64,000 nt of DNA from Tubulanus polymorphus (Eukaryota; Animalia; Nemertea). The notes under the pieces were generated by a model. The model had not been told where the DNA came from. It made no database searches and saw nothing but the letters and a program-made list of their open reading frames with translations. The DNA lies in contig NC_134026.1 of the NCBI RefSeq assembly GCF_964204645.1, positions 24,648,150-24,712,149 on the forward strand. The letters run 5' to 3'. The position numbers were made by a program, and so were the translations under genes. Positions 32,936 through 41,375 of this stretch are shown here, in pieces; within the stretch, counting starts at the first letter, position 1; the number at the start of each line of letters is the position of its first letter.

Positions 32936-35900
32936 TCACACATCATCAAATATTCCTTTTGGTGGTTTGCGATTTTGTCCATTGCCTAAATTCCTAGACT
33001 GATAACGCCCACTTCCATCTCGGCTGTTCAGTGTCATATCGAATAAACTATCATCTTCATCATTGAAATCAACAGGTTCAGAGTTAAGTAGACTTATACG
33101 ATCGTTAGCCTCGAAACGTGAAAGGTGTTTTGGACTGGTAAACGTATGCCTCGGAGAGTTATGATTTACTGCAATGAGAAAATGATACAAATAGTATAAC
33201 AAAATTACAATATACATGTTTTCTTTTTCAACTCAACCTATCTATACGAAAAAGACAGCAGGACACTATTCTCTACCAGAAAGTAGTAAAATGCAACGTA
33301 CATGTGTTATATGAAGGCGTACCTCTCTTCATCTGTTTAGTGGCATCAGAATCACTTTCTTGATCATCGCGACAATCACCTCCAAATCTTTCATGCCACT
33401 GTTGACGTCGTGTTTCTCTATCTTCCTTCCTTTCCTGGCGCCTTTTCTCTAGAAATATACAATATCAAGGTAACAGAACCGTAGAATTAAAGTTTTTAGC
33501 GGAGAGACTGATATGAACTATAAATTGTTTGTCTATATTTTCACCAAACTATAGACACTATATTGGCAAGTGTTACACATTTGGCTACAGTGTTAAGGAA
33601 TTGAAAAGTGATATGATAGAAATTGTTAAGTCTGACAAAAAAATGATTGATACCTCTATTGATAAATTCTCGACCTTCGTCAATGAGATCTTGAGTCATA
33701 TCATCGTCACCGACAAATTGTTGAAATCCAAGAAAGTGCAGGACTCGACTGCCCAGATAGAAATACGTTGCCAAACATAACAGCAAAATAGCGATTGGAA
33801 AATATATGTTGAAGCCATTAGCAATGAAAGGGATGACATCCATGTGTCCCATGATCTGTAAGAGATTACATAAGACTAGATCAATACAGAAATAGAACTA
33901 CCTAGAAGGGTAACTATAAATCGAAGGTTTAGAGATTGGAAATTTGGCATTAGCAGTTTTGAATTGTTACCCTCGTATAAGCTGTTTCTACAAGATCTTG
34001 AGATTTAGTGATGTGGCTATCTAGATGTATAAGTCCGAGGAAATTCAAACACATCGGCGGTGTAAGACGACAAAGCAACCTTAAGGAAAAGAAAATTTTT
34101 CAAAAGAATTCTTTATATCTCACCCCAGTTTACTCGAAACTCAACACCAGGATCCCTCAAAAAGCCCAACTTACATGCCACTAAATATAAGACTGTTTTC
34201 ATCAGTCTGATGACGAGAAACCAACTGGAAATAATTCAGTACACGTATTTTGAAGATGGTAAAATATGCACAAATACTGATGTATGCCACTGTCAGACAG
34301 CAAGTTACCTAAAATACAGATTCATTCATTATCAGCTTCGGTTTTATGGAAAAAGACTTGTATTTAAGAACCATTCTTACTTCAACTGTGAAATAGTCGT
34401 AGTTTCTTTTGGCCAGGTAAACAAAGTTAGCAAAAATAGACAGGACTGGCTTCGGACAGAAGAATGTACACTCAGACCAAACAACCATAATAGAGACAAT
34501 TATGAGAAATCCCGACAAAAGCTTCATCACCCACGGTTCAATTCGACATCGCCAATACCATTCTGAAATAAATCCATTCTCAATATTAAAGTATCTATAA
34601 CGATTAAGCACTAAACAATGATGTAATATAATCAACATACCAATGGTCGGATTGTAGCAGTACCGGTAGAATATTCCTTCATTTCCAGGATTCCGTTTAA
34701 ACTTTCTATCAGCATTATTTTCATTAGCCACAACGTCTTGTAATCTAAACGCTTGTTCCATCAACATCTCCCACTGGCATTGAGTTCTATGATGATCGCG
34801 TATAGCGCGAATCACACGTTTGTGTAGCCTGACCAATGATTTCACAGTTGGCGTTTCAGTTGGGTTATTTCTCTCCTCAGGATCTGACAATCGCTTCAAT
34901 GCGTATTGTTGAACTGATTCTGGGCACTGTAACGAACACAAAATACAGTGTAAAATGGACATAAAAACAATGGTTTATTCAGACTACATAGTTTCACTGG
35001 TCGTGTTCAGACCAATTAGAGGTATGTGTTTAAAAGATTAAGAGAAATATCTCCAAAAAAAACGATCCCAGTTAAAAATAAAAAGACTTAAGCTTTAATA
35101 ATAATTGTACTGAAATGGTTGAGACCATTTCTTAAATTGGAGAAACTAGATATACGTATATTCTATTTAGACCTACCTTGCTCAGGATGGTCTCAACATG
35201 GGGTCTAAGTGGATTTCCACTACGTATTGATACTACAGCTCTTTTCACTTCCTATCAATAAAATACAAATCTATGAACTCCTAATTACTGTAAAATTAGC
35301 AATATCATACATAAGGCCTAAAGTATTCAATATGTACATACATCCAAAACATCTTCTAAATTTTCTTCGGCTTCGGATTTCTCGGTGCTCAATTTGGATA
35401 CTTTGAATTGAGTTTTCTCTAATCGCTTTCCTTTTTTTGAGTTCTCCCAACACATTCGTGGAACCTCCACTAATGCATATCCGAGTAGTAAAACAAGGAG
35501 ACACAGACCCCAAGTGTTACTGGCTGTGATACCAATAACCTTCAATTTTGGTCTACAATAGTGAAACAAATTGAAAAACATTAGATTACCTTCACGCAAA
35601 CGGCATAAGATCTATCAGACAAATAGCTAGAAATAGACCTACCCATCTAAATTCAAATCAGGTCTAGCAGCAACATAAATCAAGCAGATTCCGAATATAA
35701 TCAAATAAGTTCCGTAGTATATAGCATTTTCAATTAAAGAAGATTTCAGCTTTCCAGCAACAGTAAAATCTCCAGCACTTGCATATGACTGCATCATAGG
35801 CAAAACAATCCTAAAATGTAGAGAAATTTTATTTAGAGAAGAGGCATGCATATGATTTTACCAACTGTCAGGGCCTCAAACTCACCAAGTCAATAACTGT

Positions 35901-36589: not shown

Positions 36590-36960
36590 TTTACCTTTTG
36601 CAAATACTATTTTACATCAAATTCATTTTTATACGTCATGTTCGATGTTTGGGTAACACTATTTCTCGTACTGCGGCTTGGACTCACGAGTGTTTGCATG
36701 CCAACCGGGTTGTTTTCCAACTTAGAATAATTTAATGGGACAGTAGGTCTATGAAATCAACTTGAAATTAGCCTTTAATGTTTAAAGATGTGGAAAGTCT
36801 CTAAAAGAAACGTTGAAATCGTACAGAATTTAGTAAGTTTTGATTCGATTTGTAGACGTAGTCTTTCTGTCTGGCTAATTAGCGCCATTGGCCGACTGTA
36901 TCCGCCGCATACACCGTCAACACGCAGTTAAAGAACTTTTTAAAAATCTATTTTCAGTTT
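36590..36960. promoter_or_regulatory. Probable bidirectional promoter between head-to-head LMBRD2 and CRCP
   Basis: The start codons diverge ~740 bp apart. There is a minus-strand UTR donor at ~36593, a plus-strand UTR intron at ~36833-36957, and local CpG enrichment. Confidence 0.5.
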
Positions 36961-37137
36961 TATTTCCTGACTGTTGTAATATCATGGGGATTCGTACTGT
37001 TCGCTGCGTATTACATCAACAAAGATCATCTTGATTATTTAGTGAAAAGTAAATATGGACTTGCATAAATTGAACTGAAAGTTGTCGTGAAAAGTATTTT
37101 TCGAAGAAATTTTGTGGACGTATCTGGAATCGAGATT

Positions 37138-37578
37138 ATGGAAGTTATCGATGAAAACACTGCTTTACTGAGTAATTTTGAAGTGCATCAGTTATTAAGT
37201 GAGATACAACAAAAATTGAAGGGAGAAAAAAAACCCAATAAAAGTCTACAGAATTTAGCGACAATTTCCTATGAAACGATTAAATATTTAGAAAAGTCGC
37301 CTTGTAAAGACCAGGACATCGAATCGCTCGAGCAGTTTATGAAAGCGATTGGACCGTATAATCTTACAAAAGCTGAAAAACTACAGTTGTTTAACCACCG
37401 TCCATCGACCGCCGTGGAAATACAGCTTCTAATCGAAGAGAGCGAAGAGCGTCTTTCCGAAAACCAAATCGAAGAACTTTTAGAAATTACCGCTTCAAAT
37501 ACTGGTGAGGAGGAGCAAATGACTGACACTGTATATGAAAATGAAGATGATAATCCTGACAACGAAATGTTAGAATAG
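37138..37578 (+). CDS. CRCP: DNA-directed RNA polymerase III subunit RPC9 / CGRP receptor component protein; intronless CDS
   Basis: MEVIDENTALLSNFEVHQLL..NLATISYETIKYLEKSPC..LTKAEKLQLFNHRPSTAVEIQLLIEESEERLSENQIEELL matches the Rpb4/RPC9 (CRCP) family. The true start is the ATG at 37138, not the GTG at 37087. Confidence 0.95.
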   Translation: MEVIDENTALLSNFEVHQLLSEIQQKLKGEKKPNKSLQNLATISYETIKYLEKSPCKDQDIESLEQFMKAIGPYNLTKAEKLQLFNHRPSTAVEIQLLIEESEERLSENQIEELLEITASNTGEEEQMTDTVYENEDDNPDNEMLE

Positions 37579-37625
37579 TCAATTTGGGAACACTGAATAC
37601 TTGTGCTCTTTTGAATACTTGAAAA

Positions 37626-37763
37626 ATGGAGGATGATATTTTCTCTGCTCCAGAAAATAACTGGATATTGTATTATGTTTTACTCATGCCATGCACGATT
37701 CCTGTCTTAATCGTCGCCATGTTAATAATGTGGATGGGCAAAGAGTTGTTCATAAACAATTGA
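37626..37763 (+). CDS. PIGY: PIG-Y-like small membrane protein (GPI-GlcNAc transferase subunit Y family), 45 aa
   Basis: MEDDIFSAPENNWILYYVLLMPCTIPVLIVAMLIMWMGKELFINN*. The C-terminal 30 aa align to the PIG-Y signature (human FYSLLLPITIPVYVFFHLWTWMGIKLFRHN*). The start context is strong (aaaATGG). The ORF is below the ORF-track length cutoff. Confidence 0.8.
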   Translation: MEDDIFSAPENNWILYYVLLMPCTIPVLIVAMLIMWMGKELFINN

Positions 37764-38990
37764 GATTACAAAATTTTCTCAACTTAATTGTAGAATTTGA
37801 TTATATTTAGATAACTAGCCTGCCTGATATCCTTTGTTTCCTTAGACTAGTGCGGGTTGACAAAATCGAGATAATATAATGTGAAAATTGTTTATTTATA
37901 GAACATTGAGAAATGTCTCCAAGTCATTATATATGAGGAATCATGCATGACTTTGCTTTTTTATTAATAGTGTATTTCTTAAGAATACATGCAAAATAGA
38001 TATTATTAAATGATTTAGCCTAAATGAAAAAAATCTTTGTTAGAAATAAAGGCAAAATATTTTCTAATAAATCATATGACTTGTGGTACTGATCTAGTTC
38101 ATTAGAGGATTTGACTCAAGTGGAAGAAGTGCAGGTACTCTTGTGTGTGCTGCATATGTGAATGGCAGCCTTCATTAAAACATATGGACTGGGAGGTCTA
38201 CGTGGTGAATTACCAAGTTATCATTGGTGACCAACGATTCTTTGGTTAGTGTCAGTGATTTATTTCCCAAAAGTGCAGACGGTGAAAGGCTTTGGAAATA
38301 AAATTCAATTCGCATGATCTTCTGGAATAAGCTTGTTGGGTTTTTTTTGAAACTGTGTCTTCTGATTGTGCATAAATGTCAAAGAAACTGAATTGAACCC
38401 CAATCTTTTTCTTCGGAACCGGGAAATTTTGACAGCCCGAGATGTGCATGCAGATAAGATCTAACATCGTATGGTGCTGCCACCTGTAAAGGGGCAACGG
38501 GAAATAGTTGTGCATAGTTACGCTCTCTTAGCATTGCAATTATTTCATAAATTTCCTACACATTCCATTTGATAAGGATTTTCAAGCGCAGCTTTACGGA
38601 GATGGAAATGGTTCGTATCGTGGTGGTGTTGCTCAAACTTTTTAAACGTGGTTTATTACCATTTTTACGGCTAAATTTCTAATTAAAAGTACAGTGTATG
38701 ATTGCAAAGCAAGGAATGTGAAAAAATTACAACGAAATTTTATTGAATTTTTGACGTTTAAAATTTGTAGGAAATTTTAGGAAGCAACTTAAACGATACT
38801 CGGTTCTCTATTTTCAGATTTAATAAAGAGGACATTTATCATTTCACCAGTTCATGTGTCAAGACTACTTTAACAAGAAACACAAAGAGTAATGGAAAAT
38901 AATTGTTAAAACCGTCAGTCATCAATTTCATATACTCTCTCTCGGAAATAGCTTTAAGCTCACCTTTTTGGTGGTGTCTCATTACGAAAA

Positions 38991-41375
38991 ATGAATCCAA
39001 TCCTGGTGCAAGAAACAGTTCCCTTACCTTCATCGATGGATATCAATCAACAATTGCCACCTCTACAGCAACAGATGCCACAATGGTCACGTGTTGGTGC
39101 TCTCGACAAAGCAAGGTACCCGAAACCATTCCTCAAAGACCGCCTTCAGCCATTACCTCCAACAAATGATAACAGCAGTGTTAAAACGCGTGAAAACTCA
39201 GCTGATTCCAGTGAAAGATCCATAGAAATCAAAAAAGATCTGAATGCGTCGTCATCAAGGGTACAGCATTTAGAAAGAAGTATCCTATTCCTGAAGCAAC
39301 AACATTGTGACATATTATCTAGTCTTCACCAAGAAATAGACACTTTAAAAAAAGAGAATAAAGGTTGGTGAAATAAACACCGATTTCTCAATCAAAACCT
39401 ATGACAGTGTCTCGATTCTCATGATGACAATTTCCTCATTCTTTTTAGAATTACAGTTCCAGTTGGTGATGGTTCAAAAGTTATCCCCACCAGCATCTGC
39501 TAAGCAATCATCTCGACATAACAGCGCTAAAGGAAATGCTAAGGAACAGAAACGTAATTTTCAGATTATCTTTTGAATGAAATTTGTGTAAAAACACATG
39601 ATGTTCTTGCTGCTTTCATAATTACTTTATGATAATAGTCTCCTAATGCTTTTCATTAAAACCAATTTTATTTCACCTAGGATCTAGTGCTGTTAGAAGA
39701 CTACCTCCTGTAGAGAAAATTTCATCTGGTATGTTGGTCCTATCATGAATTGTCTTCCAAATTAAAACCAAACCATGAAATGATCAAATGCTTTGTCAAC
39801 ATGAAAGATTAAGTGTATTTTGATAATTTCGCAGCAGGTAGCAGTAAAAAGAATGTAGAAGTCCGTGCAGTGTATTTAGATGATGAGATCAAGCAATTGA
39901 AATTTCAACTGAAAGAGGCTCAAAATAAGAATGCCTACCTCAAACAATTACTAGACGAACAAAATAAGAATATAATGTGAGTATAGACCTACTGAAACAA
40001 TTAACACTTCATAAAGCTTCTACAATCTGTGCTAATAAATATTTCCTGTTATTTTGAAGTTGTATATGCGTTGTGTTTTTAGCAAGGAATCGATTGAAAG
40101 AAAGGCGATTGATGGGCCTGTTGGTGAATTCGGAGGGGCAGGTGCTGCATCTGCACCGGATGTCAGTCATATTGACTTAGAAGGAGAAGGTACGGAACAC
40201 ATGGATATCACGACTAATCCAATAACTATTAACAGCATGCACACTGGTTCGCGAAAACCAACTACTGCAGAATACGAAGCCATGATTCGATATTTGCATG
40301 GATTGAATCAAAGACAGAATAATGAGGTAAATCAACAATTCAGATCAATCTATTAATCACCTCTGAATAAGAAAGGATGGCTTGTAATTTACTACCAGTG
40401 TATTGTTCTATATTACAGTTAATGCAGTTAAAAACAGATTTAAAAGATGTTATATATTCACAAAAGTGGACACCAGATGCTTACCTTCTGGCTAAAGCTT
40501 ACATAGCTGAAGATGAAGACATAGAATTGGCAGAGAAGAATCATCTACCAAAGGTTCCAATGAAACATGCTACTCGCAAATTGTAAGTTGGGTATATCTG
40601 AAATAAAATGATGGTTAATTTCTTCTATCTATATTTCGTCTTTCTTCCTTTCTTCACTCTGTCTCGTGTATATCTTGTATTGAGGTATTTTTTTAATTGA
40701 ACCTTTTATTTACGGAAGCCATAAGGAGCTTCAAGTTGTTGCGTGCCAACTCAACAAGTGGCCATAATTATGTCGACATATTGCATCGAGGTGACGTAAA
40801 TATGTTGACATATCTATTGCATCAAGTTGACATAAATAAGTTGACATATCATGTTTTGATGACATATTTCGTTTTGTTGACCATTTTCCCCATGAAAAAC
40901 TGAAATGTTGAAATGTAAGATGAAGATGTCAGAAATATGAGGAATGAGTTTCAAGTTGTCATTTTCAACTTGTCGTGAGGAAAATGGTTGAAAAAACCAA
41001 ATATACTGTCAAAAAATCACGATATGTCGACATGACGCAATATATCGCGATATGTCTACAAAAATATGGAAAATTGTTGAGTTGGAACAGGACAAGTGAA
41101 GGCCCCTTATCACTTCCATATATTCATTAGTGTCTGGTGAACAGAAAATTTTCCTAAAGATACATTACTTTTATAGTACTTTGATCTTTTTTAATTCAAC
41201 TGATATGGATTGATAATATTTGATTGCTCTATTTTCTAGGCCCAATGTAGCTTACGCTCAACGTGATAACGCATCCCTCCCAGCTCTGAAACAGACATTG
41301 GGTAACAAGGCTGCAGAAAGGAGAAAACGCACTCAAATTCTACAGAAAGCAAGATTAAAGAAAGAAATCCTGTAG
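38991..41375 (+). CDS. CCDC74: Coiled-coil domain-containing protein 74-like (CCDC92-type coil plus CCDC74 C-terminal domain)
   Basis: Exons ~38991-39363, 39449-39553, 39681-39728, ~39836-39977, 40083-40326, 40419-40582, 41241-41375. Motifs RVQHLERSILFLKQQHCDILSSLHQEIDTLKKENKELQFQL and C-terminal SLPALKQTLGNKAAERRKRTQILQKARL. Confidence 0.8.
40711..41120. mobile_element. Degenerate fold-back MITE with long imperfect terminal inverted repeats in the last CCDC74 intron
   Basis: Left end tacggaagccataaggagcttcaagttgttgcgtgccaactcaacaag versus reverse complement of the right end tatggaagtgataaggggccttcacttgtcctgttccaactcaacaat. Both ends are TA, and internal GTYGACATA motifs are mirrored. Confidence 0.7.

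Follow-up and report, generated by a model that had tools for sequence, protein, structure and literature searches.

Can an ORF of only 45 codons, situated immediately behind the gene for a Pol III subunit, be a working gene, and if so from which RNA is it translated? This question is raised by a locus within a 64,000-nt stretch of the Tubulanus polymorphus genome (hereafter the window). An earlier note, made from the sequence alone, had proposed that the small ORF encodes PIG-Y and is carried behind CRCP on a bicistronic mRNA. The features of the locus are given below in window coordinates.

36595..36624, minus strand: first exon of an LMBR1-family gene, head-to-head with the three-ORF unit (from an RNA contig)
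36671..36832, plus strand: exon 1, its extent taken from the RNA contig of run X2, whose 5′ end is not a mapped start site
36788..36832, plus strand: coding exon 1 of the spliced upstream ORF, 15 codons followed by a phase-0 GT donor
36833..36957, plus strand: intron of 125 nt, GT-AG, within the upstream ORF (joint 36832>36958 in X2 and X3)
36958..37068, plus strand: coding exon 2 of the upstream ORF including its stop, completing a 51-aa peptide
37069..37137, plus strand: spacer 1, 69 nt, between the upstream ORF and CRCP
37138..37578, plus strand: CRCP/RPC9, 146 aa, intronless CDS (Pfam RNA_pol_Rpb4, 88.5 bits)
37579..37625, plus strand: spacer 2, 47 nt, without ATG, AG dinucleotide or poly(A) signal
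37626..37763, plus strand: short PIG-Y, 45 aa, one transmembrane helix and conserved C-terminal tail (Pfam PF15159)
38045..38050, plus strand: AATAAA terminating the RNA contig (contig end 38051), with a second AATAAA at 38066

The description of the 45-codon ORF in the earlier note held in every point on re-examination: it lies in frame +2, which is not that of CRCP, begins 47 nt after the CRCP stop (37578), is preceded by an in-frame TGA ending 3 nt before its ATG and has the strong start context AAAATGG. Its proposed identity was borne out by the Pfam PIG-Y profile (PF15159, 31.9 bits against a cut-off of 25), and the match covers profile positions 40-67 of 69 only, in agreement with the remark that the first transmembrane helix is missing. 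In the ESM Atlas, the best cluster for the ORF is a 46-aa PIG-Y with 68 members, among which plants are commonest (score 0.90). Moreover, a profile built from eight relatives without the window sequence picks out the ORF from the 64 kb with an E-value of 5.9e-15, the next match being at 0.17, and therefore the match is not one of chance. The window's 45-aa sequence is itself absent from the protein collection, so that an apparently unannotated PIG-Y is located in an invertebrate group. A word-index search with the peptide gave no match and PDB sequence searches nothing useful. Searching cluster representatives with phmmer returned three matches, namely P0138 (a repeat artefact), P0139 (the peptide of CRCP locus L003, below) and P0140, a further unnamed single-helix PIG-Y of 38 aa on a 959-nt contig.

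Human PIG-Y, a 71-aa protein with two helices (PMC4599673), has been modelled as a V-shaped two-helix hairpin (PMC12182360), a structure that the window peptide cannot form. The conserved second helix and C-terminal tail are present, and Y16, Y17, L20, V27, W36, G38, F42 and N45 are invariant in all nine PIG-Y sequences compared. Neither the window peptide nor its eight relatives have the vertebrate form of ~70 aa with two helices, each of them matching profile positions ~37-69 only. A decayed copy, as the earlier note had considered, is thus contradicted. Because absence of the first helix is common to the eight relatives and to the 46-aa Atlas cluster, it is not a defect of the window copy, and on these comparisons the single-helix form appears to be the normal PIG-Y of these animals rather than a product of decay. 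Conservation within PIG-Y is stronger in the second helix and C-terminal region, which may contact PIG-A (PMC4599673). As both are kept, the 45-aa peptide is predicted to serve as the PIG-Y component of the GPI-GlcNAc transferase, and retention of a one-helix form of 38-46 aa indicates which portion of this GPI-GnT subunit may be the minimal one.

The gene in front of PIG-Y carries an Rpb4-family domain and is close to named RPC9 proteins (71% identical to an RPC9-like protein of Lineus longissimus), which places it in the CRCP/RPC9 family. It had been described as intronless. This is true of the CDS; the transcript, however, contains the intron at 36833-36957, within a third ORF that had escaped notice. 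Joining the exons opens 51 codons, from an ATG at 36788 to a stop ending at 37068, 69 nt before CRCP. With a 5′ end at 36671, exon 1 would also contain, ahead of this ORF, four short ORFs of 3-10 codons that begin with ATG (36698-36804). The upstream peptide has one hydrophobic helix (mean hydropathy 2.0 over 19 residues). Neither the window copy nor its relatives matched a Pfam family, an ESM Atlas search with exon 2 gave bacterial hypothetical clusters only (scores below 0.9), and PDB and protein searches led to no named family. Profile searching produced 169 candidates, of which two are relatives: the Dreissena polymorpha hypothetical protein DPMN_083803 and an unnamed 49-aa protein. A profile without the window sequence recovers the spliced ORF with an E-value of 1.2e-11, the clear best match in the 64 kb. 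In its N-terminal and helix pattern the peptide presumably resembles vertebrate SMIM27. The latter is a ciliary transition-zone microprotein of 55 aa (PMC13143143), and the upstream ORF is alike in size and in its single helix.

Is this arrangement peculiar to the window? We used a CRCP alignment to scan metagenome contigs and obtained 60 CRCP loci. A conserved ORF in the 3′ flank of CRCP, which the earlier note had led us to expect, was present in 10/60 loci: a PIG-Y of 38-46 aa lies right behind CRCP on the same strand in L001, L002, L003, L006, L007, L008, L011, L018, L019 and L032. These represent 8 organisms because L007/L008 and L018/L019 are near-identical. For all eight relatives' peptides Pfam PIG-Y is the top match, four above the cut-off and four at 19.8-23.9 bits, in each case through the C-terminal half only. 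Divergence is of coding type. Over the last 31 codons of PIG-Y (36 pairs) mean pS is 0.78 and mean pN 0.32, a contrast that is not an estimate of dN/dS, pS being saturated and the sequences having been chosen by protein likeness; identity by codon position is 0.61/0.76/0.35. L007 and L008 do not differ in PIG-Y and have too few changes for a selection test.

The upstream ORF was likewise found in 10/60 loci, as exon 2 in L001, L002, L006, L007, L008, L011, L016, L018 and L019 and as a whole ORF in L009. Exon 1, with 15 codons (16 in L011) and a phase-0 GT donor, was located in L001, L008, L011, L016 and L019, and the intron is at the same place wherever exon 1 was found. A search for exon 1 in L002, L006, L007 and L018 was negative; the sister loci of L007 and L018 (L008 and L019) do have it. 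In exon 2, pS is 0.71 and pN 0.45. All three ORFs occur together in 8/60 loci, from 6 organisms besides the window, and neither small ORF was seen in 48/60. The upstream flanks of L003 and L032 are too short for the upstream ORF to be sought. Coding-type divergence, third positions that are least conserved, and retained start and stop codons suggest that each small ORF is under purifying selection, and we consider it very likely that both are genuine genes belonging to a single unit.

Across the organisms with a PIG-Y behind CRCP, the CRCPs share just 49-71% identity. A CRCP tree of 53 rows (22 of the 60 loci together with named proteins) has weak resolution: a grouping of the window with L003 and Lineus receives no more than 90/82, and L001 and L002 lie near the annelid Paralvinella. 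We infer a spiralian range for the three-ORF unit, most loci being without an established taxon. Two mollusc-like loci carry the upstream ORF and CRCP with no PIG-Y in the sequence downstream (1.2 kb in L009, 3.9 kb in L016); the L009 CRCP is 80% identical to that of Bulinus, and the L016 upstream ORF is close to the Dreissena protein. The CRCP of L004 groups with L002, yet L004 is without both small ORFs.

Intron positions point to how the unit was assembled. In a comparison of 14 multi-exon CRCP loci, in which a few junctions were poorly mapped, introns turn up repeatedly after codons 15, 46, 77 and 97, in a set comprising L055 (salmonid-like), L039, L041, L057, L059, L053, L054, L028 and L038. 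None of the loci with small ORFs has introns at these positions, and the CRCP introns of L019 (codon 25) and L032 are at other places. Lacking the ancestral introns, CRCP probably arose as a retrocopy that landed behind the small upstream gene. This gene, and not CRCP, was probably the host, because CRCP sits behind a conserved, spliced 51-codon ORF. An intronless CRCP retrocopy may thus have landed in the 3′ UTR of a two-exon upstream gene, PIG-Y would have joined behind CRCP afterwards, and it may later have moved or been lost from this slot in mollusc-like lineages.

Transcript evidence comes from contigs of sequencing runs. X2 yields a single unbranched contig of 1256 nt at depth 210, consisting of 36671-36832 joined to 36958-38051, with zero cover of the intron or of 38082-38486 and with neither a loose end nor a joint in either spacer. 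X3, from a different study, has the identical splice joint 36832>36958, and its contig at 37124-37690 bridges the CRCP stop and the PIG-Y start. The joint is absent from the DNA-like run X1, which covers the stretch unspliced in one piece and may be the source of this DNA; none of the runs being recorded as RNA, X2 and X3 were taken as such on account of their spliced joints. From the sample of X2, runs X4 and X5 gave short patchy pieces only, and X6 gave none matching. The sole variant, 37467 A>G, is silent in CRCP. Spacer 2 lacks ATTAAA as well as the AATAAA whose absence had been reported before, and beyond PIG-Y, downstream of both ORFs as previously described, the poly(A) signals are AATAAA at 38045 and 38066, together with an ATTAAA at 38005; one AATAAA falls within the CRCP CDS, at 37237. 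The contigs show one transcription unit and not the full length of each mRNA: a contig across two genes is not proof of a single transcript, and it is blind to start sites and rare isoforms. The proposed bicistronic CRCP-PIGY unit is thus upheld, to the extent that contigs allow, in that the genes share a transcription unit and amended in that this holds three ORFs, not two.

Tight same-strand spacing is typical of trans-spliced operons, and the unit could be imagined as an operon that is resolved to single mRNAs by spliced-leader trans-splicing. Some CRCP-PIG-Y spacers do contain AG. However, spacer 2 of the window, L001 and L006 has none to serve as acceptor, the depth-210 contig passes through both spacers without a loose end or branch, and PMC7854359 describes an annelid without spliced leaders or operons. 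For the window spliced-leader trans-splicing is largely refuted, and as an account of the unit we regard it as scarcely credible.

How, then, do ribosomes reach PIG-Y? Between CRCP and PIG-Y the spacers measure 7, 18, 33, 47, 48, 52, 55, 71 and 141 nt, and the two ORFs keep no fixed relative frame. In 7/9 loci no other ATG comes between the CRCP stop and the PIG-Y ATG; the remaining 2/9 spacers contain ATGs. The PIG-Y ATG has a purine at -3 in 9/9 and a G at +4 in 7/9. In 6/9 loci an in-frame stop lies 3-18 nt before the PIG-Y ATG, with no AG after the stop. The window CRCP holds 8 internal ATGs, of which 3 are in frame and 5 out of frame, and over 7 CRCP CDSs we counted 24 out-of-frame ATGs against 25.1 expected. 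Out-of-frame ATGs are thus not depleted in CRCP, which shows no trace of leaky scanning from the cap, and the earlier view that simple leaky scanning is unlikely is sustained.

These junctions also bear on the possibility that PIG-Y is not a separate product. It could be made as a fusion, by readthrough or frameshifting from CRCP or by splicing to the upstream helix, or the upstream ORF could supply the missing first helix in trans; the upstream ORF does have one helix where PIG-Y lacks one, and the two flank an apparently inserted CRCP. Against a fusion are the varying frames, the in-frame stop without a later AG in 6/9 loci, and RNA contigs without a joint from the upstream helix to PIG-Y. 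Moreover, the whole upstream ORFs (L009, P0121 and P0122) have no Pfam PIG-Y match, and L009 and L016 keep the upstream ORF without PIG-Y behind CRCP. We therefore hold PIG-Y as a fusion, or as one half of a pair, to be very improbable. A complex prediction for the upstream exon-2 peptide with PIG-Y gave no answer either way (score 0.03).

Fresh recruitment of ribosomes in the spacer, in an IRES-like manner, would make PIG-Y a downstream ORF (dORF) translated independently of CRCP. For vertebrate dORFs such recruitment has been proposed; their translation is reported to be independent of upstream scanning and to occur in all frames (PMC7459409), and frames vary here too. However, spacers of 7-18 nt are too short for a ribosome entry site. 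The spacers share no 5- or 6-mer above shuffled sequences (P 0.09 and 0.06, respectively), and no Rfam match was found. We judge IRES-like entry improbable.

A more serious alternative is that PIG-Y is translated from a shorter mRNA, started by a weak promoter inside the CRCP CDS, and that the long RNA shares only its 3′ end. A nested start of this kind would be hidden by the contigs, and it would explain a strong PIG-Y start context without upstream AUG depletion. Monocistronic isoforms are, moreover, common at Drosophila dicistronic loci (PMC4528330). L004 bears on the same point. Here a 425-codon zf-HIT ORF (Pfam PF04438; L004:1900-3177) occupies the slot held by PIG-Y elsewhere, its start 11 nt beyond the CRCP stop and the interval free of AG; we take it to be ZNHIT2-like. 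An ORF of this length would easily be expressed by an internal promoter, and the swap fits reinitiation or an internal promoter alike. Upstream of the L004 CRCP is an apparent LINE remnant. L025, an unrelated-looking locus, has a 52-codon ORF (cut by the contig end) 141 nt after a CRCP stop at 946, with what we take to be a zf-HIT-like cysteine pattern. The short spacers of L006 (7 nt) and L001 (18 nt) count against an internal promoter, which would have to persist inside a CDS whose silent sites have presumably diverged as those of PIG-Y have, and there is no shared motif upstream of the PIG-Y ATG. We thus regard an internal promoter as possible, if unlikely.

Reinitiation by ribosomes that have terminated at the CRCP stop fits best, because spacers are short, the PIG-Y AUG is generally the first and in strong context, and AUGs are not depleted in CRCP. 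Low levels of PIG-Y would come from ribosomes reinitiating at the first strong AUG after the stop. Reinitiation of the TURBS type calls for a conserved UGGGA-like motif upstream and for stop and start to lie within ~20-30 nt of each other. Within 150 nt, TGGGA was found in the window spacer only (1/9 loci), and the spacer is <=30 nt in 2/9; the junctions thus do not conform to TURBS. Neither do the CRCPs have an Asp-rich tail (0.10 versus 0.08). Termination-reinitiation after long ORFs is exemplified by calicivirus TURBS (PMC10275272) and by the Asp-tail coupling of CASQ2 (PMC3923131), which the present locus resembles in that a second ORF follows shortly after a long one terminates and from which it differs in lacking overlap, a conserved TGGGA and an Asp-rich tail. 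Such reinitiation is best known from viruses and usually needs extra elements (PMC10275272, section 9).

Upstream of CRCP the situation is similarly crowded. Distances from the upstream ORF to CRCP are -17, -14, 2, 19, 21, 43 and 69 nt, plus ~26 and 43 nt in L016 and L002, respectively, once a probable second intron is removed. In L007, L008 and L011 the upstream ORF stops 14-17 nt inside CRCP and out of frame (L007:1188-1204, L008:1251-1267, L011:710-723), and in these loci CRCP needs leaky scanning, backward reinitiation or a start site of its own. The CRCP ATG is itself in strong context in 8/8 loci. Ribosomes may arrive at CRCP either by leaky scanning past the short upstream ORF or by reinitiation after it; given the strong CRCP context and the overlapping upstream ORF, several inefficient steps would then be stacked.

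We therefore favour, with a probability of roughly 0.55, an old conserved unit of a 51-aa membrane microprotein, CRCP and a single-helix PIG-Y, all likely made from one spliced mRNA, with PIG-Y probably produced by reinitiation. Taken singly, it is somewhat probable that PIG-Y comes mainly from the long mRNA, and the odds that it is made by reinitiation after the CRCP stop fall slightly short of even. A bolder proposal, which we advance only tentatively and consider rather unlikely, is that the end of CRCP has been a cellular platform for long-ORF reinitiation since early spiralians, on an obligate tricistronic mRNA without single-gene isoforms, such that any gene placed behind the stop is translated. 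The slot would then have been held by PIG-Y in eight organisms and by the 425-codon zf-HIT gene in L004, and the products of the unit would be a ciliary-type microprotein, a Pol III subunit and a minimal one-helix PIG-Y.

The closest known case is PYURF-PIGY, a human bicistronic mRNA (PMC13303939). There too PIG-Y shares an mRNA with an unrelated gene and is the second of the two cistrons; in the present unit, by contrast, the partner is CRCP, a third ORF precedes it, and PIG-Y has 38-46 aa and one helix rather than 71 aa and two. In Drosophila, 159 dicistronic pairs and seven tricistronic sets are reported, and 114/159 loci also have a monocistronic isoform (PMC4528330). They are alike in placing unrelated genes on one processed mRNA without trans-splicing; the three-ORF unit, however, is kept across CRCPs that are only 49-71% identical. 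A term search of 12 supplementary files of that paper, with one file outside its reach, gave no entry for Rcp or PIG-Y. Vertebrate 3′ UTR dORFs offer a looser parallel, as small ORFs in any frame after a main stop, and of the human dORF peptides 6/1,406 are conserved (PMC7459409), whereas the PIG-Y ORF encodes a deeply conserved subunit of a known enzyme. In the literature searched, whose coverage of subscription papers is incomplete, the three-ORF unit is undescribed. New with respect to PYURF-PIGY and the fly polycistronic loci are the partners, the one-helix PIG-Y and the deep conservation. PIG-Y is a downstream cistron both in vertebrates and here, each time with a different partner, which suggests that low-level, coupled production is favourable for it. 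Moreover, with spacers that range naturally from 7 to 141 nt and with partners exchanged in nature, these loci form a test set for whether cellular mRNAs reinitiate after a long ORF.

Finally, we note the surroundings of the unit. The contig of the LMBR1-family gene starts 46 nt from that of the three-ORF unit, and the two likely share a bidirectional promoter. On the other side, the next gene, with a CCDC92 domain, begins at ~38492. Window genes have short introns, and short intronic repeats resembling mobile elements, with many partly matching contigs that have loose ends, occupy ~34940-35060 and 40750-41070.
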